Positions 5,037-26,818 of a stretch of 35,258 nt of DNA are shown piece by piece (within the stretch, counting starts at the first letter, position 1; each line of letters opens with the position of its first letter). The stretch lies in the IMG/VR virus record IMGVR_UViG_3300045988_142641. One strand, written 5' to 3'. The position numbers and the translations under genes are program-made. The stretch comes from a virus. Its lineage: Duplodnaviria; Heunggongvirae; Uroviricota; Caudoviricetes. The notes below the pieces were generated by a model, which made no database searches, had not been told where the DNA came from, and was given only the letters and a program-made list of their open reading frames with translations.

Positions 5037-5555
5037 TCACAGGCCGATATTGCGGCGGTGTTGCTCCAGCCGGTCGACGCCGTTCACCTTCTCAATCATG
5101 TTGATGGTGTCGATTTCGACCAGCTCCTTACCGTCCATCGTCAGCCGGAAATAGGTGCAGACCACGGAGATTTTCGACTCAGTGTCTTCTCCCTGTTTCC
5201 CCTCGCCGGTGTCGATTTCTTTCTGACGTCCACGCATGACCACCTCGACGGCCACCGTTTCGCCGGTATCGTCGCGCTGGTAAGAGCCAGCAAAACGAAT
5301 CGGTACGGCATCCACGCCGGTTGCGGCGTAAAGCTCCCAGATAACCGAATTCGGGAAGCCCCCGAGCGACCACTCCATTGACAGCGCATCGTCATCAAGG
5401 CCGAGGTCTACCGGTGCGCTGCCGTTCATCCCCGCACCGCGATAGTTTTCGAGCTTACGGGTCAGTTTTGGCAGCGTGACGGACTTTGCAACGCCCTGAT
5501 AGCTGTAGCCGTTCAGAAAGACGTTCATTAACTTGAGTTTGCGCGGCATTGCCAT
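5037..5555 (-). CDS. FII: tail tube protein FII (172 aa)
   Basis: 172-aa ORF directly downstream of the sheath gene; P2 synteny and size. Confidence 0.85.
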   Translation of the reverse strand: MAMPRKLKLMNVFLNGYSYQGVAKSVTLPKLTRKLENYRGAGMNGSAPVDLGLDDDALSMEWSLGGFPNSVIWELYAATGVDAVPIRFAGSYQRDDTGETVAVEVVMRGRQKEIDTGEGKQGEDTESKISVVCTYFRLTMDGKELVEIDTINMIEKVNGVDRLEQHRRNIGL

Positions 5556-5567
5556 CGGTCAGGCTCC

Positions 5568-6758
5568 TTAATTGCTGTTAACCGAAGTGACCAGATTTGC
5601 CAGGTATTTATCGGTAATACGCTGGCGCAGGGTCAGGTTTTCAAGAGGAGGCACCGGTGTATAGTCGTAGTCGATATACAGTTTTCCGGCCTTGAGGGTT
5701 TCCGCATCGTTGGATTCTTCGCTGAACCAGCAGGTCGCATCCACGATATAGCCGTTTGTTTTCAGCTCACGGAATTTGGCATTGATGCCGTCAACGATGT
5801 CGCGAATCAGCGTTGCGGTGATGGGCTTGTCCACCGCCCACATGTGCGCCTCAGCCATCGTGTCGGCCAGCACCTGCGCGGTGCGGGTGTAGTTTTCAAA
5901 GAGGAACAGCGGGTCATCAGAGCAGGTACGGTTACCCCAGAAGCGGAAACCGTCGCGGCGAATCAGCGTTGTGACGCCTGACTCGTTAAGCAAGTCAGCA
6001 TCGGTGCCGGACTCCTGCAAATCCCAGAATACAGAGGCGCTGATGCCGGTAACACCGTTCACCCCGACATTGGACAGCGTTTTATGCCAGCCCTGCTCCT
6101 GGTCAATTCTGGCACGCAGACCCAGCGCACGGGCGGTGGCATACGCGGTGGCGGTAGTACTGGTGACCGTATCCCATGCGAGGAAATCCGGCCAGATGAC
6201 CATCAGCTCACGCTGGCTGAAATTCTGACGGTAGGCTTTCACCTCGGAAATGGTTTTACAGCCCCATGCGCTGATATACCCGAAAGCGCGCAGCTTCTGA
6301 CAGACGGATGCCAGTGCAACAGCCACCTCTTTGGTATCCAGTCCCGGCACACCGAGAATACGCGGTTTAACACCGGTTACCGACTCCGCCGCCAGCAGTG
6401 CTTTTAGTCCGGTGTACTGACCGTTTTCGTCGGTGGTGCCGATGATATTGGAAACGGTCTGCGCGAGTTTCGTTTCCTCGTCGTCGCCGGCGCCGTCTTC
6501 CACACGCACGACAACGGTGACCGGTTTTGACTGGTCAGCGATGGCCTGCAACGATGCCGCCAGCGTGCCTTTTTTACCGGCCTTTGCAATTGCGCTCTGC
6601 ACATTGGTAATCAGCACCGGTTTATTGAGGGGGAAGGTTTCCGCATCCGCATCGCTGGCCGTGCAGACCATGCCGACAATGGCAGTGGATACGGTGGAAA
6701 TGACACGGGTGCCGTCGTTAATCTCCAGCACCTGCACGCCGTGATGATAGTCACTCAT
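5568..6758 (-). CDS. FI: tail sheath protein FI (396 aa)
   Basis: 396-aa ORF; first gene of the FI-FII-E-T-U-D tail operon; size equals P2 FI. Confidence 0.9.
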   Translation of the reverse strand: MSDYHHGVQVLEINDGTRVISTVSTAIVGMVCTASDADAETFPLNKPVLITNVQSAIAKAGKKGTLAASLQAIADQSKPVTVVVRVEDGAGDDEETKLAQTVSNIIGTTDENGQYTGLKALLAAESVTGVKPRILGVPGLDTKEVAVALASVCQKLRAFGYISAWGCKTISEVKAYRQNFSQRELMVIWPDFLAWDTVTSTTATAYATARALGLRARIDQEQGWHKTLSNVGVNGVTGISASVFWDLQESGTDADLLNESGVTTLIRRDGFRFWGNRTCSDDPLFLFENYTRTAQVLADTMAEAHMWAVDKPITATLIRDIVDGINAKFRELKTNGYIVDATCWFSEESNDAETLKAGKLYIDYDYTPVPPLENLTLRQRITDKYLANLVTSVNSN

Positions 6759-6944
6759 CCGTTTAACTCCGTGGTTAATGGGTGCAACTATTTTCTGTTG
6801 TGCAGAGCATGAGACGCTATTTGACCTGGCTGGTCAGGGGATGAAACAACAGACAAAGAAAAGGCGGGTAATCCGCCAGCCTGCCATGATTTGCACTCAC
6901 TCATTTTCCAACTGACAATTTACATAGCCCAAACGCTATCAAAT

Positions 6945-7017
6945 CTGACAGTCTGCTTTGAGCGAATAACGGACATTGGGAACAGCATTCTGTGTGAATC
7001 AAGGGGGAGCAGGTCAC
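6945..7017. repeat. island-1 boundary repeat R1 (about 82% identical to 9914-9986)
   Basis: Shared blocks aacggacatt, aacagcattctgtgtgaatca and gggagcaggtca in the same order and spacing as in R2. Confidence 0.7.
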
Positions 7018-7285
7018 TGACTATGAACACCTCATCATTGACATGAAGCAACAATTTTCAATGCTTGGTATGTACAACATTTTCATGTCATCCTCATTGA
7101 TGTAGAATCGTCTATGATTTTTGCTTACGTGAAATATATGGAAATTCTCAGGTTGAATGTTAATGAAATAAACCATCTAAAGATTTTCAAATGCAACTTG
7201 AACTGTTATTGGTGTGCACACTGAATTCTAATTAAATATATGGGTATTGAGTAAAATATAAAACATTGATTAATAAGGAGCGTAT

Positions 7286-8155
7286 ATGATTTTTGATGAT
7301 ATTGATGGTTATTACGATTATCGGGAACTTCAATCCATTGCTGATGAAAAAAGAGTGCTGAATAAAGTCAATGCTTTTCGTCAGGAATTCACCGCTCTTG
7401 CTAGAGAATGGTCTCCTGAACGTAATTCTCAATGGATTTGCCGTATCTATTTCTGTACTAAAATGATTCTAAATGCAACTGTCGTTCTAAAACAGGCTGA
7501 ATTCGCCGAAGAAAAAAACCTGAGGGCAGCCATTCCTTACTTTCACTATTATGCTATGCTCTCAATCTTACGTTGTGTGGTCCTAACTTTGCCGACTGAA
7601 GACTGGGATAATGAGGATATTCTGAGTATCTCTCATAAAAAAGCGAGAGACAAAACCAGAGAATGGTTGGCTCGATATGATAGAGCACTGGCCACACGAT
7701 TTGATGATTTCTTCCTGACCCTTAAATCAAACAGAGAATTACTATCATATAAGGCGCCTGCCAGTGCAGACCGAAACATTAGCAACCAAGATGAGGTAAT
7801 ATATTTCTGTACTTTACTAGCAGAAGTCGCGCAATTTAACACGGCTATATTGCATAACGCTGTTGTTAGACACGCATCAGAGGATGATTTCGTTGTGTTC
7901 GATCATGACATGGCCCGCATTTATAACGTTGAGATTGAAGGGAAACGTTTCTATGATAGCGAGGACAGATATCGTCTGGATTATCTGAGACGAAAAGGCA
8001 ATATTCCTCACAGCATTCACATGACCATGACAGAGGGGCAGACTGAAGATTTCATTGGTGCCTGGGATGCTCATGACGATGATGTCGATAACGAAGAAAG
8101 CCGTTTTTACTCTGGCTCACCTTCATCATGGCAGGACATATTCGATATTCCCTGA
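7286..8155 (+). CDS. hypothetical protein (289 aa), AT-rich cargo gene
   Basis: Strong SD (aaggag, 5-nt spacer, ATG); AT-rich codon usage unlike the phage backbone; acidic C-terminus; no motif I recognise. Confidence 0.65.
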   Translation: MIFDDIDGYYDYRELQSIADEKRVLNKVNAFRQEFTALAREWSPERNSQWICRIYFCTKMILNATVVLKQAEFAEEKNLRAAIPYFHYYAMLSILRCVVLTLPTEDWDNEDILSISHKKARDKTREWLARYDRALATRFDDFFLTLKSNRELLSYKAPASADRNISNQDEVIYFCTLLAEVAQFNTAILHNAVVRHASEDDFVVFDHDMARIYNVEIEGKRFYDSEDRYRLDYLRRKGNIPHSIHMTMTEGQTEDFIGAWDAHDDDVDNEESRFYSGSPSSWQDIFDIP

Positions 8156-8274
8156 ATCATAAAAATAATTGCCAATCAATAAAACACCATACCTTTTCAA
8201 TTTTAATGGTGTAATCAGGTCGATAACCCCCTTGATGTGACCGGCTACCCGTTATCAACACTAAGTGCTGTTCG

Positions 8275-8610
8275 CTACTTCCGTTTTAGGCACAGGGCTG
8301 CTATTGCAGCCCTGACAACCTTAGACTCAATCGATTCAGAGATCTCTAACGCATCATCTACTTCAATGCCCAGATAACGGACCGTGCTTTCCAGTTTCTT
8401 ATGGCCTAACAGAAATTGGATCACTCGTAGATTCTTGGTTTTCTTGTAGATGAGGCAAGGTTTTGTTCTTCTCATGGAATGTGTGCTGTAAAGCGAATCT
8501 TCGAGACCAAGCTTTTCTACCCACCCATGAAAGATTCGGTTGTATTGCCGGGTTGATATGTGCCGATTAGTTCCGATCCGAGATCGGAACAAGAAGTCTT
8601 TACTATGCAA
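8275..8610 (-). pseudogene. tyrosine recombinase/integrase C-terminal remnant (111 aa)
   Basis: Contains HSMRRT (HxxR), LLGH and a downstream Y in RYLG, i.e. the C-terminal catalytic motifs of a tyrosine recombinase, but lacks the N-terminal half and box I Arg. The upstream space is occupied by the 3' end of the 379-aa ORF. Confidence 0.6.
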
Positions 8611-8616
8611 ATTAAA

Positions 8617-8634
8617 AGGCTGTATACACAGCCT
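8617..8634 (-). terminator. hairpin downstream of the 379-aa ORF
   Basis: aggctgt-atac-acagcct (7-bp stem), followed on the minus strand by tttaatttg. Confidence 0.4.
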
Positions 8635-8645
8635 GTTAATTTATG

Positions 8646-22627: not shown

Positions 22628-24400
22628 ATGACCATCACCACAGACACCACTCTTTTACACGACCCGCGTCGTCAGGCGGCGCTGCTGTACTGGCAGGGGT
22701 TTTCCGTGCCGCAGATTGCCGCCATGTTGCAGATGAAACGCCCGACAGTGCAGAGCTGGAAACAGCGCGACGGCTGGGACAGCGTTGCCCCCATCAGCCG
22801 TGTCGAAATGAGTCTGGAAGCGCGGCTGACCCAGCTCATCATCAAACCACAGAAAACCGGCGGTGACTTCAAGGAAATTGACCTGCTGGGACGCCAGATT
22901 GAACGACTGGCACGGGTCAACCGCTACAGCCAGACCGGCAACGAGGCAGACCTTAATCCGAACGTCGCTAACCGCAACAAAGGCGGGCGTCGCAAACCGA
23001 AAAAGAATTTTTTCAGTGACGAGGCCATCGAAAAGCTGGAGCAGATTTTCTTTGAGCAGTCTTTCGAATATCAGTTGCACTGGTATCGCGCCGGGCTTGA
23101 GCACCGCATCCGCGATATCCTGAAATCCCGCCAGATTGGCGCGACGTTTTATTTTTCCCGCGAGGCGCTGCTGCGCGCCCTGAAAACCGGTCATAACCAG
23201 ATTTTTCTGTCGGCCAGTAAAACGCAGGCGTATGTGTTCCGCGAATACATCATCGCCTTTGCCCGGCTGGTTGACGTTGACCTGACCGGTGACCCGATTG
23301 TCCTGGGCAATAACGGCGCAAAACTGATTTTTCTCGGCACCAACTCCAACACCGCGCAGAGCCATAACGGCGACCTGTACGTCGACGAGATTTTCTGGAT
23401 CCCGAATTTTCAGGTACTGCGTAAGGTGGCATCAGGTATGGCCTCACAGAGTCACCTGCGCTCGACCTATTTCTCCACCCCGTCCACGCTGGCGCACGAC
23501 GCCTACCCGTTCTGGTCGGGTGAACTGTTCAACCGGGGACGCGCCAGCGCCGCCGAACGTGTGGAAATCGACGTCAGTCATAACGCCCTTGCCGGAGGTC
23601 TTCTCTGTGCGGACGGCCAGTGGCGGCAGATTGTCACCATTGAGGATGCCCTGAAAGGTGGCTGCACACTGTTCGACATTGAGCAGCTCAAACGTGAAAA
23701 CAGCGCCGACGATTTTAAAAACCTGTTCATGTGTGAATTTGTTGACGACAAGGCGTCGGTGTTCCCGTTCGAGGAGCTGCAACGCTGCATGGTCGACACG
23801 CTGGAAGAATGGGAAGACTATGTGCCGTTTGCCGCCAATCCGTTCGGCTCCCGTCCGGTATGGATTGGTTACGACCCGTCACACCGTGGCGACAGCGCCG
23901 GATGCGTGGTACTGGCACCGCCGGTGGTGGCCGGTGGCAAATTCAGAATACTTGAGCGTCACCAGTGGAAAGGCATGGACTTTGCCACCCAGGCGGAATC
24001 CATCCGCAAACTCACCGAAAAATACAACGTCGAATACATCGGCATTGATGCCACCGGCCTCGGTGTCGGCGTGTTCCAGCTCGTGCGCTCGTTCTATCCC
24101 GCCGCGCGCGACATCCGCTACACGCCGGAAATGAAAACCGCAATGGTGCTCAAGGCAAAAGACGTTATCCGCCGAGGCTGTCTGGAATATGACGTCAGCG
24201 CCACCGACATCACCAGCTCGTTTATGGCTATCCGCAAGACCATGACCAGCAGCGGACGCAGTGCCACCTATGAGGCCAGCCGCAGCGAGGAAGCCAGCCA
24301 CGCCGACCTCGCCTGGGCGACCATGCACGCCCTGTTAAATGAGCCACTCACCGCCGGTATCAGCACCCCGCTGACATCCACCATTCTGGAGTTTTACTGA
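22628..24400 (+). CDS. P: terminase large subunit (ATPase) P (590 aa)
   Basis: From internal Met MTITTDTTLL..., 590 aa; stop overlaps Q start (ATGA). Confidence 0.85.
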   Translation: MTITTDTTLLHDPRRQAALLYWQGFSVPQIAAMLQMKRPTVQSWKQRDGWDSVAPISRVEMSLEARLTQLIIKPQKTGGDFKEIDLLGRQIERLARVNRYSQTGNEADLNPNVANRNKGGRRKPKKNFFSDEAIEKLEQIFFEQSFEYQLHWYRAGLEHRIRDILKSRQIGATFYFSREALLRALKTGHNQIFLSASKTQAYVFREYIIAFARLVDVDLTGDPIVLGNNGAKLIFLGTNSNTAQSHNGDLYVDEIFWIPNFQVLRKVASGMASQSHLRSTYFSTPSTLAHDAYPFWSGELFNRGRASAAERVEIDVSHNALAGGLLCADGQWRQIVTIEDALKGGCTLFDIEQLKRENSADDFKNLFMCEFVDDKASVFPFEELQRCMVDTLEEWEDYVPFAANPFGSRPVWIGYDPSHRGDSAGCVVLAPPVVAGGKFRILERHQWKGMDFATQAESIRKLTEKYNVEYIGIDATGLGVGVFQLVRSFYPAARDIRYTPEMKTAMVLKAKDVIRRGCLEYDVSATDITSSFMAIRKTMTSSGRSATYEASRSEEASHADLAWATMHALLNEPLTAGISTPLTSTILEFY

Positions 24401-25434
24401 TGAGCAAGAAAAAAGGGAAAACACCGCAACCTGCGGCAAAAAAAATGACCGCCAGCGCCCCGAAAATGGAGGCATTCACCTTTGGTGAGCCGGTGCCGGT
24501 ACTCGACCGCCGTGACATTCTGGATTACGTCGAGTGCATCAGTAACGGCAGATGGTATGAGCCGCCGGTCAGCTTTACCGGTCTGGCGAAAAGCCTGCGT
24601 GCTGCCGTGCATCACAGCTCGCCGATTTACGTCAAACGCAATATTCTGGCCTCGACATTTATCCCGCATCCGTGGCTTTCGCAACAGGATTTCAGCCGCT
24701 TTGTGCTGGATTTTCTGGTGTTCGGTAATGCGTTTCTGGAAAAGCGTTACAGCACCACCGGTAAGGTCATCAGACTGGAAACCTCACCGGCAAAATATAC
24801 CCGCCGTGGCGTGGAAGAGGATGTTTACTGGTGGGTGCCGTCCTTCAACGAGCCGACAGCCTTCGCGCCCGGCTCCGTGTTTCACCTGCTGGAGCCGGAT
24901 ATTAATCAGGAGCTGTACGGCCTGCCGGAATATCTCAGCGCCCTTAACTCTGCCTGGCTGAATGAGTCGGCCACGTTGTTCCGCCGCAAGTATTACGAAA
25001 ATGGCGCACATGCCGGATACATCATGTACGTCACCGATGCCGTGCAGGATCGCAACGATATCGAAATGCTTCGCGAAAACATGGTCAAGTCGAAAGGCCG
25101 CAACAACTTTAAAAACCTGTTTCTCTATGCCCCACAGGGGAAAGCCGACGGCATTAAAATTATCCCCCTCAGTGAAGTGGCGACGAAGGACGATTTTTTT
25201 AATATCAAAAAAGCCAGCGCCGCTGACCTGCTGGACGCGCACCGCATCCCCTTTCAGTTGATGGGTGGCAAGCCGGAGAACGTCGGGTCGCTGGGTGATA
25301 TAGAGAAAGTGGCAAAGGTCTTTGTCCGCAATGAGCTTATCCCGTTACAGGACAGGATCCGCGAGATAAACGGCTGGCTCGGTCAGGAGGTCATCCGCTT
25401 TAAAAACTACTCACTGGACACTGACAACGGCTGA
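24400..25434 (+). CDS. Q: portal protein Q (344 aa)
   Basis: 344 aa; last gene before cos; P2 synteny and size. Confidence 0.9.
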   Translation: MSKKKGKTPQPAAKKMTASAPKMEAFTFGEPVPVLDRRDILDYVECISNGRWYEPPVSFTGLAKSLRAAVHHSSPIYVKRNILASTFIPHPWLSQQDFSRFVLDFLVFGNAFLEKRYSTTGKVIRLETSPAKYTRRGVEEDVYWWVPSFNEPTAFAPGSVFHLLEPDINQELYGLPEYLSALNSAWLNESATLFRRKYYENGAHAGYIMYVTDAVQDRNDIEMLRENMVKSKGRNNFKNLFLYAPQGKADGIKIIPLSEVATKDDFFNIKKASAADLLDAHRIPFQLMGGKPENVGSLGDIEKVAKVFVRNELIPLQDRIREINGWLGQEVIRFKNYSLDTDNG

Positions 25435-25750: not shown

Positions 25751-26818
25751 TCATTTCTTAGCTTTCACAACCGGATGCGCGCGATCATGTCCACCGCCAC
25801 GATGCTTAGAAAATATAACCTTTTCATTAGTAAAAGGTTTTTGGCCATAGACACTATCATAGTGGAAAAAGACGTTCGGAAGATGAGGCACACGGATGAA
25901 TCCATACTTCACTCTAGTATCACCGATGACCCCAAAAACCCTTGTACTTACTGGGTAGCATAGTTCACCACAACGCATCACTAATTCATCTGCTGTTGGG
26001 CGTTCAGAAGGTTCCAATTTTAAACAATCTTCTATAAGTTTAATTATTTCATTTGCCAATGGCGCATACTGTCTATTTGAAAATATAAAGTCAGGGTAAG
26101 GAACATGCGTGCCAGAAAGTATATTTGGTATAGCCATATAACCAATACCAAAAGGGTATTTTCCAGTAAGAATCCTGAACATCATCGCACCCAATGCCCA
26201 AATATCTGTAGGTTTCGAAACCTTACCTTGACTCTGTATGATTTCCGGTGCCATATATGGCAAAGCCCCGATAGCCGTTTGCGAAGAACTAATTGAATCT
26301 TGACCATTTCTTGCAGCCTCATCAATTTCATCTCCGGCCATCTTTGAAATGCCGAAATCCGTAATTTTTATCTCTGTAGCATTGATACCACCGCCTACCA
26401 TTATATTTGAAGGTTTGAGGTCCCGGTGTATGACGTCAACATGATGCGAAGCAGACAGAGCTTTAGCTAAATTATGAAATATTTTAGCAGTTAAATATGG
26501 ATCAACACTTGAATAAGTGTCTAAAATAGCCTTATCCAAGTCAACTCCATCAATAAATTCCTCCGTTAAAAACTCTCTACCCTCATCATCAATGAAGTAA
26601 TCTAAGGTTTTAGCCACATTAGGATGATTAACTCTTGATGCTAATATTGCACTTCTATGAAACCTTTTTTCAGCAGATTTATTTTTGGGAGTTTTGAGAG
26701 CCACATGCCTCGAGAGAATATTATCCATTGCCAAATAAACTTTTTGCATACCGCCTTCACCAATCTCCCTCAATATTGTATATCTGCTAACTTGAATGCC
26801 TGGAGTCAGATTTATCAT
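25751..26818 (-). CDS. Hanks-type Ser/Thr protein kinase (355 aa), cargo
   Basis: G-loop GEGGMQKV, VALK lysine, catalytic loop HRDLKPSN, DFG, APE and DIWALG all present; SD GGAGG 7 nt upstream; ATGA overlap with the upstream kinase; ~60-aa C-terminal extension. Confidence 0.85.
   Translation of the reverse strand: MINLTPGIQVSRYTILREIGEGGMQKVYLAMDNILSRHVALKTPKNKSAEKRFHRSAILASRVNHPNVAKTLDYFIDDEGREFLTEEFIDGVDLDKAILDTYSSVDPYLTAKIFHNLAKALSASHHVDVIHRDLKPSNIMVGGGINATEIKITDFGISKMAGDEIDEAARNGQDSISSSQTAIGALPYMAPEIIQSQGKVSKPTDIWALGAMMFRILTGKYPFGIGYMAIPNILSGTHVPYPDFIFSNRQYAPLANEIIKLIEDCLKLEPSERPTADELVMRCGELCYPVSTRVFGVIGDTRVKYGFIRVPHLPNVFFHYDSVYGQKPFTNEKVIFSKHRGGGHDRAHPVVKAKK

Follow-up and report, generated by a model that had tools for sequence, protein, structure and literature searches.

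A decayed catalytic-domain recombinase gene and paired 24-bp sites in the fun(Z) slot of a P2-like prophage suggest a route for cassette exchange

In integrons, a tyrosine recombinase gene adjoins an array of gene cassettes that are split by imperfect palindromes (the attC sites, 57-141 bp long and conserved only in structure), and defence cargo is frequent. In the Xer-dependent pdif modules of Acinetobacter plasmids, short sites built as arm, 6 bp and arm bracket small accessory modules in many replicons. By what route defence genes enter and leave the hotspots of phages and satellites is acknowledged to be an open question. At one hotspot, inverted repeats flanking fun(Z) in P2-like coliphages were described by Nilsson, Karlsson and Haggård-Ljungquist (Mol Biol Evol 2004), as summarised in PMC8987985, a summary that names no recombinase. 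Rousset et al. (2022) offered cos-proximal recombination for hotspot exchange as speculation only, a 2026 survey of thousands of P2/P4 elements reported no transposable elements in the hotspots and noted that exchange with unrelated elements is beyond what homologous recombination can explain, and recent hotspot studies mention neither repeats nor a recombinase and treat the exchange mechanism as open. Here we describe a stretch of 35,258 nucleotides (IMG/VR record IMGVR_UViG_3300045988_142641; hereafter the window), a P2-like prophage that carries at the position of fun(Z) the truncated gene of a tyrosine recombinase, int' (8275..8610, minus strand). We compare this fragment with its intact 200-aa relatives and with the two types of 24-bp site, A and B, that flank those relatives and border the P2 slot.

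The int' reading frame comprises 111 codons from a TTG start and matches the Pfam family PF00589 (Phage_integrase) with an E value of 1.2e-11 and 45.1 bits (cut-off 27.1) over profile positions 92-166 of 172. When a full-length 200-aa relative was used as a tblastn query against the window, the sole match was at 8625-8326 (E 4e-58, 93% identity); this stretch (8326..8625, minus strand) corresponds to parent codons 100-199, and 95 of the 111 codons of the frame are homologous, to parent residues 105-199. The catalytic set is incomplete. The HxxR motif (HSMRR, 8481-8467), the LLGH motif (8412-8401) and the tyrosine motif (VRYL, 8382-8371) are kept, all on the minus strand, and Arg-I and the beta-hairpin lysine are gone; neither the arginine region of the parent (KLRGCDL) nor its lysine region (QQKTG) was found anywhere in the window. 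The initial annotation had recognised a truncated tyrosine recombinase at 8275-8610 by these three motifs and had noted the absence of the box I arginine, and the profile match, the tblastn match and the motif coordinates bear it out on both points. It had further stated that a 379-aa gene occupies the place of the 5' half, which is correct, and that an N-terminal domain was thereby lost, which is not, since the 200-aa parent has no separate one. Its two caveats, a frameshifted larger gene and a chance resemblance, can be set aside: no trace of the first 100 parent codons was found in the window by protein or DNA search and the frame upstream of int' is full of stops, so an intact gene broken by a sequencing frameshift is ruled out, and the PF00589 and tblastn matches rule out a chance likeness of motifs. 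Nor can int' be the prophage's own integrase, which is present as a complete gene for a 337-aa protein with Int_N and catalytic domains (34111-35124).

The fragment has also decayed within the part that remains. A 1-nt deletion just before the stop (ATTG-AGTC versus ATTGAAGTC) has led to read-through, so that the final valine is replaced by a frameshifted tail of 16 unrelated residues (SKVVRAAIAALCLKRK), and two nearly invariant residues are substituted (Y156C and L170F). The TTG "start" is a product of ORF calling. It has no ribosome-binding site visible in the sequence, a terminator-like hairpin belonging to the 379-aa gene (8617-8634) lies between the stop of that gene and the TTG, and no promoter-like site was found in window 8150-8800. 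At the DNA level, int' is 90.6-95.3% identical to the copies in three E. coli loci (L001-L003), and the copy in the SF-468 prophage (L001) is itself annotated as a pseudogene ("missing N-terminus"). We are nearly certain that int' is a decayed member of a small, array-embedded family of 200-aa recombinases, and the frame is in itself an inert, non-functional remnant, an ordinary pseudogene.

The full-length parent, which the initial annotation had proposed to look for, was found as an intact gene of 603 nt in a Qin-like prophage of E. coli F070, in chromosomal islands of ATCC 25922, AR_0089, SC422 and SCU-313, and on plasmid pC5103. Its 200-aa product, of which WP_023147793 in F070 and WP_001305361 in ATCC 25922 and Nissle are examples, is essentially a catalytic domain alone, with the full set of catalytic residues. 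At least the 3' half of the gene is present in 820 of 5426 complete E. coli genomes (~15%, intact and truncated copies pooled), mostly at 90-95% identity. The protein family comprises at least 7999 clusters at E <= 1e-10, and 547 confirmed matches were obtained in one-genome-per-species GTDB contigs from Enterobacterales, Pseudomonas, Alteromonadales and Burkholderiales. The family is thus widespread in Gamma- and Betaproteobacteria, highly conserved and apparently uncharacterised. A perfect 14-9-14 palindrome (ATACTCAAATCTCC-CACATTGCA-GGAGATTTGAGTAT) was seen over the int start codon (L002:6649-6700, minus strand), at the same position in L003-L006 and L008-L087. Across 80 loci its arms always contain GGAG and CTCC, and their sequence varies with pairing kept. 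These covarying arms disfavour a lox-like site and make a hairpin that hides the ribosome-binding site more likely, and its conservation suggests that translation of the recombinase may be kept low.

In Enterobacterales, the intact gene always sits in a conserved unit of ~710 bp, made up of a B-like site at -63, the hairpin covering the ribosome-binding site, int and an A-like site directly after the stop, and this unit has unrelated genes on either side. Homology 5' of int begins ~65 nt before the start codon in five E. coli contexts, at the B-like site, and 3' homology ends ~45 nt past the stop in 14 enterobacterial loci, right after GTGCCAnnAGCGGAC. Both edges of the unit are versions of the same 24-bp palindrome that is repeated in the island of the window. 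Two related imperfect palindromes can be told apart, A (GTCCGCTnnGTGCCAnnAGCGGAC) and B (GTCCGCTnnTCGCTCnnAGCGGAC), which have the same arms and different 6-bp centres (GTGCCA in A, TCGCTC in B). The fragment int' retains a degenerate A-like site, A3' (8279..8302, minus strand, AGCAGCCCTGTGCCTAAAACGGAA), directly 3' of its stop region, where intact loci have a hairpin and GTGCCAnnAGCGGAC as the 3' end of the unit; the B side was removed with the 5' half.

Allowing up to 3 mismatches, we located 73 A and B sites in 17 enterobacterial loci, and a shuffled-sequence control yielded no match even at a looser limit of 4 mismatches. All but four of the sites (69/73) are co-oriented with int (p = 2e-16) and all but one (72/73) lie outside long ORFs (p = 1e-35), and 15 B·A pairs with a start-to-start spacing of 42 nt were counted among them. 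Read in the direction of int, the arrays follow the order …A–cassette–B·A–cassette–B–int–A–cassette–B·A…, so that the int gene fills the spacer of one B·A junction. The sites, mostly in the form of B·A pairs, split the neighbouring genes into cassettes, many with defence systems; next to intact copies we found PD-T7-1, HEC-08, a DUF4365 nuclease, an HNH endonuclease with a restriction endonuclease, SIR2 with HerA, and NsnAB. In Pseudomonas, a 22-nt site in a version of its own (CCGCTTCTGGCCGGTTAGCGAC) stands at -88 and recurs inverted at +633 (~45 nt past the stop), and the sequence of the site appears, from this comparison, to change along with the recombinase clade. We also considered whether A and B belong to a described family of RNAs or repeats. 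Rfam gave just two sub-threshold chance matches in 6700-11250, and a high-copy repeat of the REP or ERIC type is ruled out, the B·A element occurring once per genome at the median.

On both sides of its island, the window is 93-98% identical to P2, Wphi, L-413C, P2_AC1 and other Peduoviruses. The island, a variable stretch of 4.4 kb with four ORFs (289 aa, the 111-codon fragment, 379 aa and 314 aa), lies between the tail-fibre assembly gene G (11179-11706) and the tail sheath gene FI (5568-6758), which is followed by FII (5037-5555), all on the minus strand. This is foreign DNA between G and the pF promoter of FI with inverted repeats on its flanks, which is the arrangement of the P2 Z/fun locus. 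The whole 35-kb window holds exactly four A and B sites, all of them within the island and oriented as int'. On the minus strand the slot reads G / A1 [314 aa] B1·A2 [379 aa – int' – A3' – 289 aa] B2 / pF-FI, with A1 (GTCCGTTCTGTGCCAAGAGCGGAC, 11094..11117) as the border on the G side, B1 (GTCCGTTCCTCGCTCTCAGCGGAC, 9920..9943) as the end of the 314-aa cassette, A2 (GTCCGCTCTGTGCCAGTAGCGGAC, 9878..9901, 0 mismatches) as the start of the cassette that contains int', and B2 (GTCCGTTATTCGCTCAAAGCAGAC, 6951..6974) as the border on the FI side; B1 and A2 form a typical B·A junction with a start-to-start distance of 42 nt. The initial annotation had proposed to look for the sites of the parent among the repeats of the island, and indeed 6951-6974, 9878-9943 and 11094-11117 are of the site types that flank intact copies. 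The same layout is found in P2, with A ~60 nt after G, B ~100 nt upstream of the pF activator site and fun(Z) between them, and in Wphi, where A follows G, B precedes the pF promoter and orf44 is enclosed by the two. P2_AC1 and R18C have one of the two sites apiece at the threshold used.

Homology to the backbones of P2, Wphi, P2_AC1 and R18C is lost at window 6965-6977, in B2 or at its edge, and is regained at 11091-11106, in A1 or 3 nt short of it. A single 24-bp site is the only sequence at the slot borders common to P2 and to foreign contexts. Such a shared site is short for RecA-dependent exchange. A chromosomal locus in a non-P2 context (L098) shares window 6951-9942 at 98.9%, from B2 through the 289-aa gene, int' and the 379-aa gene to A2·B1, and the two outer sites of its cassette differ from those of the window on one arm each. 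In the orientation of int', A2 reads GTCCGCT CT GTGCCA GT AGCGGAC in the window versus ATCCGCT TC GTGCCA GT AGCGGAC in L098, the left arm alone differing, and B2 reads GTCCGTT AT TCGCTC AA AGCAGAC versus GTCCGTT AT TCGCTC AC AGCGGAC, the right arm alone differing, with the right arm in the window being of the P2-backbone type. Similarly, A1 combines a P2-type left arm with a right arm of the type found in L002, a locus which has the same 314-aa cassette. On this comparison, the fall of homology breakpoints inside the site centres points to site-specific cassette exchange.

Two further repeats were observed around these borders. Just outside B2 and A1, a 10-bp inverted repeat (AATCTGACAG / CTGTCAGATT, window 6942-6951 and 11117-11126) is kept in P2, Wphi, P2_AC1 and R18C, and the half-sites on the backbone side, when combined, resemble halves of a single longer palindrome, a hint that there was once only one site. 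On the inner side of each B site, ~45 nt are repeated (6975-7016 / 9944-9985, TGACCTGCTCCC..GATTCACACAGAATGCTGTT..AAT) as part of a 72-nt repeat (6945-7016 / 9914-9985, 82% identical). Some cassettes of L002, L012 and L014, though not most, have this tail ahead of B as well, and it may be an accessory site or belong to a subfamily of cassettes.

The history of int' can be read in part from its truncation junction (8612..8639, minus strand), where the terminator-like palindrome of the 379-aa gene (TTAACAGGCTGTGTATACAGCCTTTTAA) is fused to int codon ~100 with microhomology (ATACAGC..AATTTGCA). The identical junction sequence is present in L001, L092, L093 and L098. The first of these, SF-468, is an unrelated prophage with another gene downstream of int', and altogether the junction was found in 18 complete E. 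coli genomes, at two levels of divergence. In the STEC strain 2012EL-2448 (L093:4826-6943), a live int is followed, at a distance of one cassette, by a 373-aa homologue of the 379-aa protein and a badly decayed int', and the same block is found in Ecol_AZ147 (L092:4845-6208). A 379/373-type fusion block can thus share an array with an active int copy, as L093 shows, and an intact int inside the P2 slot was not found in the contexts sampled, in a search that was not exhaustive. The int' of L092 and L093 is 50% (protein) and 75% (DNA) identical to live int; that of the window is 93% identical to live int. The window copy is a mosaic, its first ~130 nt being 90% identical to the old L092/L093 lineage and its 3' part 93% identical to live int and only 75% to the old int'. 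The simplest reading of this pattern would be that the 3' part was refreshed by gene conversion or crossover with a live copy, an event that would also put different genes 3' of int' in different loci.

Since the junction is shared with other contexts and has an older decayed copy, the truncation predates the present content of the slot, and the fragment reached the slot already dead, as passive cassette cargo, with nothing overwritten in place. We propose that the ancestral order was A-[379 aa]-B-int-A-[289 aa or other]-B and that a deletion from the terminator of the 379-aa gene to int codon ~100 removed the B site, the 5' leader, Arg-I and the lysine, and by the same stroke welded two cassettes into one. 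The welded block would then have moved whole between slots bounded by A and B, in a lambdoid prophage, a chromosomal island and the P2 slot. In the Ecol_AZ147 island, we also noted that B is followed by sequence resembling that upstream of P2 pF (L092:3025-3092, an 85% match to window 6907-6965); its position next to B means that cassettes may carry scraps of the P2 backbone on leaving a phage.

As A and B have the same arms and different 6-bp centres, they would behave as heterospecific lox or FRT pairs. Recombination between like sites could add or remove [cassette–B·A] circles, or exchange one A…B segment for another, and the movement of cassettes would most likely proceed by recombinase-mediated A×A and/or B×B exchange, with a live family member acting in trans. 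Independently of this, the conserved 3' part of int' has probably offered live int genes a stretch for plain homologous recombination, by which the downstream content was swapped. We put the probability of this full account, including recombinase-mediated exchange at A and B, at roughly 0.6. A broader proposal, which we advance tentatively from the same sequence comparisons, is that a recombinase of 200 aa with only a catalytic domain and two heterospecific 24-bp sites may form a natural cassette-exchange platform of Gamma- and Betaproteobacteria that loads and swaps defence and accessory genes in islands, plasmids, lambdoid prophages and P2 Z/fun; the phage would have docking sites only and use the enzyme of its host, with int' as a fossil.

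Several observations weigh against this account. The link between the recombinase and the A and B sites is drawn from position, orientation and co-variation, and the arrays could share sites by common descent, the sampled loci not being fully independent. The mosaic int' means that plain homologous recombination has acted here too. A 200-aa protein without a core-binding domain is unusual as the enzyme for 24-bp sites; FimB and FimE are comparably small. No close relative of the gene was found in 50,697 deposited phage genomes (the best match, at 58% identity, was in unannotated faecal contigs), so that the enzyme would have to act in trans. The AlphaFold model (pLDDT 52) is too poor for fold comparison; a phmmer search of the parent against PDB sequences retrieved no relative of solved structure at E <= 0.001. 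Some of the "cassettes", finally, are multi-gene or ordinary accessory operons (ars, MFS transporters, LysR regulators). Non-defence cargo was seen in A…B intervals beside int at L015:6977-9938, L012:6690-9936 and L013:10645-13039, and consists, as judged by eye from the translations, of an ars operon, an MFS transporter with a LysR regulator, and a monooxygenase with a LysR regulator. With such cargo in A…B intervals, the platform is not confined to defence genes.

The alternative with the most to be said for it takes A and B as mere conserved intergenic punctuation (terminators, insulators or relics of miniature elements), with the cassettes moving by homologous or short-homology recombination, the recombinase a passenger or a self-mobiliser and the fragment uninformative on how the slot is loaded. 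Homologous recombination is clearly active here, given that the 3' part of int' stands at 93% to live int against 75% to the older int'. The 66-nt B·A junction, 94% identical between unrelated loci, could be a homology patch, the B and A around int amount to ~16-bp inverted terminal repeats, and B·A could be a remnant of the int unit akin to a miniature inverted-repeat transposable element; the absence of the gene from deposited phages would also fit. As for a role as terminators, A1 and A2 fold as hairpins, whereas B2 does not (-1 kcal/mol, z = 0.17) and no T-run stands 3' of the sites, so A and B would make poor terminators; the lack of a hairpin in B2 argues against a purely structural role as well. 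At the slot borders, moreover, the ~15 bp of half-site and centre that are shared are, on general knowledge, too short for efficient RecA-type exchange, yet in comparisons with four phages and one chromosomal locus the breaks all lie within the sites or at their edges. The near-uniform orientation of the sites with int and the covariation of their sequence with the recombinase clade in Pseudomonas are likewise hard to square with punctuation. We regard this explanation as unlikely, without dismissing it.

The initial annotation had offered another history, in which an integrative element with its own integrase had settled in the P2 slot before the 379-aa gene overwrote it in place. The recombinase fragment does abut an unrelated gene and the slot is known to gain foreign DNA. 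However, the parent turned out to be a 200-aa array-embedded recombinase without an arm-binding or core-binding domain, short of the 300-450 aa and the arm-binding and/or core-binding domain of a classical integrase, and the prophage has an integrase of its own. In the contexts sampled, intact copies are embedded in arrays, with variable genes to either side, and were never seen at the edge of an element beside attL/attR duplications. The same truncation junction recurs outside P2, in SF-468 and L098, and in decayed form beside live int in L093, and the block of 289 aa, int' and 379 aa is common to the non-P2 locus, all of which speaks against an overwriting in this slot and leaves that history very improbable. 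The accompanying view that the slot gains DNA by site-specific as well as homologous recombination has fared better, as traces of both site-bounded exchange and homologous recombination are present. Hardly credible, in our judgement, is a third possibility, that the fragment has been kept as useful, either as a truncated protein (e.g., one that regulates the live recombinase in a dominant-negative way) or in cis, by providing the A-like site and a terminator for the 379-aa gene. The ORF is open for 111 codons, its C-terminal 30 residues match the family consensus exactly, the three fully compared assemblies (L094, L095 and L099) have the island at 99.96-100% identity, and 307 blocks of the collection index the 289-aa protein. 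Against this, the missing promoter-like site, the terminator-like hairpin directly upstream, the TTG without a visible ribosome-binding site, the two altered residues and the frameshifted end all disfavour a working protein. The older copy has fallen to 50% identity, as neutral drift predicts, and the high identity here is accounted for by recent gene conversion.

Set beside described systems, cassette exchange at A and B follows a logic akin to that of integrons and of Xer-dependent dif modules, and the locus falls outside both. Similar to integrons, a recombinase gene is adjacent to site-delimited cassettes (on both sides of int at the 17 loci) and circles could excise between directly repeated sites. 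In contrast to integrons, there is no IntI-type enzyme, the 200-aa parent scoring 17.2 and 17.6 bits against the integron-integrase models TIGR02249 and NF011946 (cut-offs 265 and 435), and there are no attC-type sites, those here being 24 bp long, conserved in sequence and of two types; the cassette genes, one-directional and promoterless in integrons, are here on either strand, sometimes several to a cassette, and the recombinase gene lies inside the array between B and A, not at one end. With pdif modules the arrays have in common the arm, 6 bp and arm dyads around mobile modules, but the recombinase is a dedicated small one far below the Xer cut-offs (44.7 bits for XerC, cut-off 335, and 27.6 for XerD, cut-off 330), with matches that reach only the C-terminal halves of the XerA, XerC, XerD and XerS models, and the A/B consensus is unlike the 28-bp dif sequence. 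FimB and FimE invertases share the length of ~200 aa made up essentially of a catalytic domain, and int is flanked by inverted ~16-bp copies; the match to FimB/FimE-type models is weak, however (27.5 bits, cut-off 222), there is no sign of an invertible promoter segment and most sites in the arrays are direct repeats. A further parallel is recombinase-mediated cassette exchange as engineered with heterospecific lox or FRT sites, which also has the same arms, a different central 6 bp, a bracketed segment and hybrid border sites, with the difference that it is a laboratory design and the behaviour here is inferred from comparative sequence only.

Since repeats at P2 fun were reported earlier, the sites at this locus are not new. 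Going by the summary in PMC8987985, the repeats of Nilsson et al. (2004) are at the same locus and very probably are the same sequences as A and B, and what is added here to the work so summarised is the division into two site types, the B·A and B-int-A grammar, the 200-aa family and the crossovers at the site centres. A link between the repeats and this recombinase family was not found in the searchable literature, and the literature searched held nothing specific on the site sequences or on a described small-recombinase/defence-cassette system.

Among the neighbours of int', the 379-aa gene (8646..9785, minus strand; phrog_12525, function unknown) is fused to the fragment by the deletion and travels with it. 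The 289-aa gene (7286..8155, plus strand), the third of the A2..B2 cassette, has no family match. The 314-aa gene (10112..11056, plus strand) is the sole gene of the A1..B1 cassette, has a weakly GIY-YIG-like N-terminus and recurs as a cassette beside live int and PD-T7-1 in E. coli F070. None of the three matched a known defence family, and from their location we consider them candidate new anti-phage genes. In the SF-468 prophage, a gene for a small serine recombinase lies ~3 kb from the int' block (L001:2634-3173); small serine recombinases have recently been proposed as defence-locus markers (PMC13552941). The second P2 hotspot of the window, between gpA (29260-31587, minus strand) and the portal gene (24400-25434, plus strand), encodes two Ser/Thr protein kinases and then a PP2C-like phosphatase (25751-29038, minus strand). 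The kinases match the PADLOC mad6 and PD-T4-6 models with E 1e-50 or better, and the trio looks like a candidate three-gene defence system. No A or B sites were found in this hotspot (25751-29038).

Inert as it is, int' ties the repeats bordering a P2 hotspot to a specific and widespread family of small recombinases. A and B bracket both the tail-gene hotspot of P2 and the cassettes of many defence islands, which narrows the question of how such genes move to two short sites and a single small protein. Should the link prove true, it would explain the precise borders of the hotspot, make A…B intervals a search rule for new defence genes, and provide a compact recombinase with natural heterospecific sites for genome engineering.

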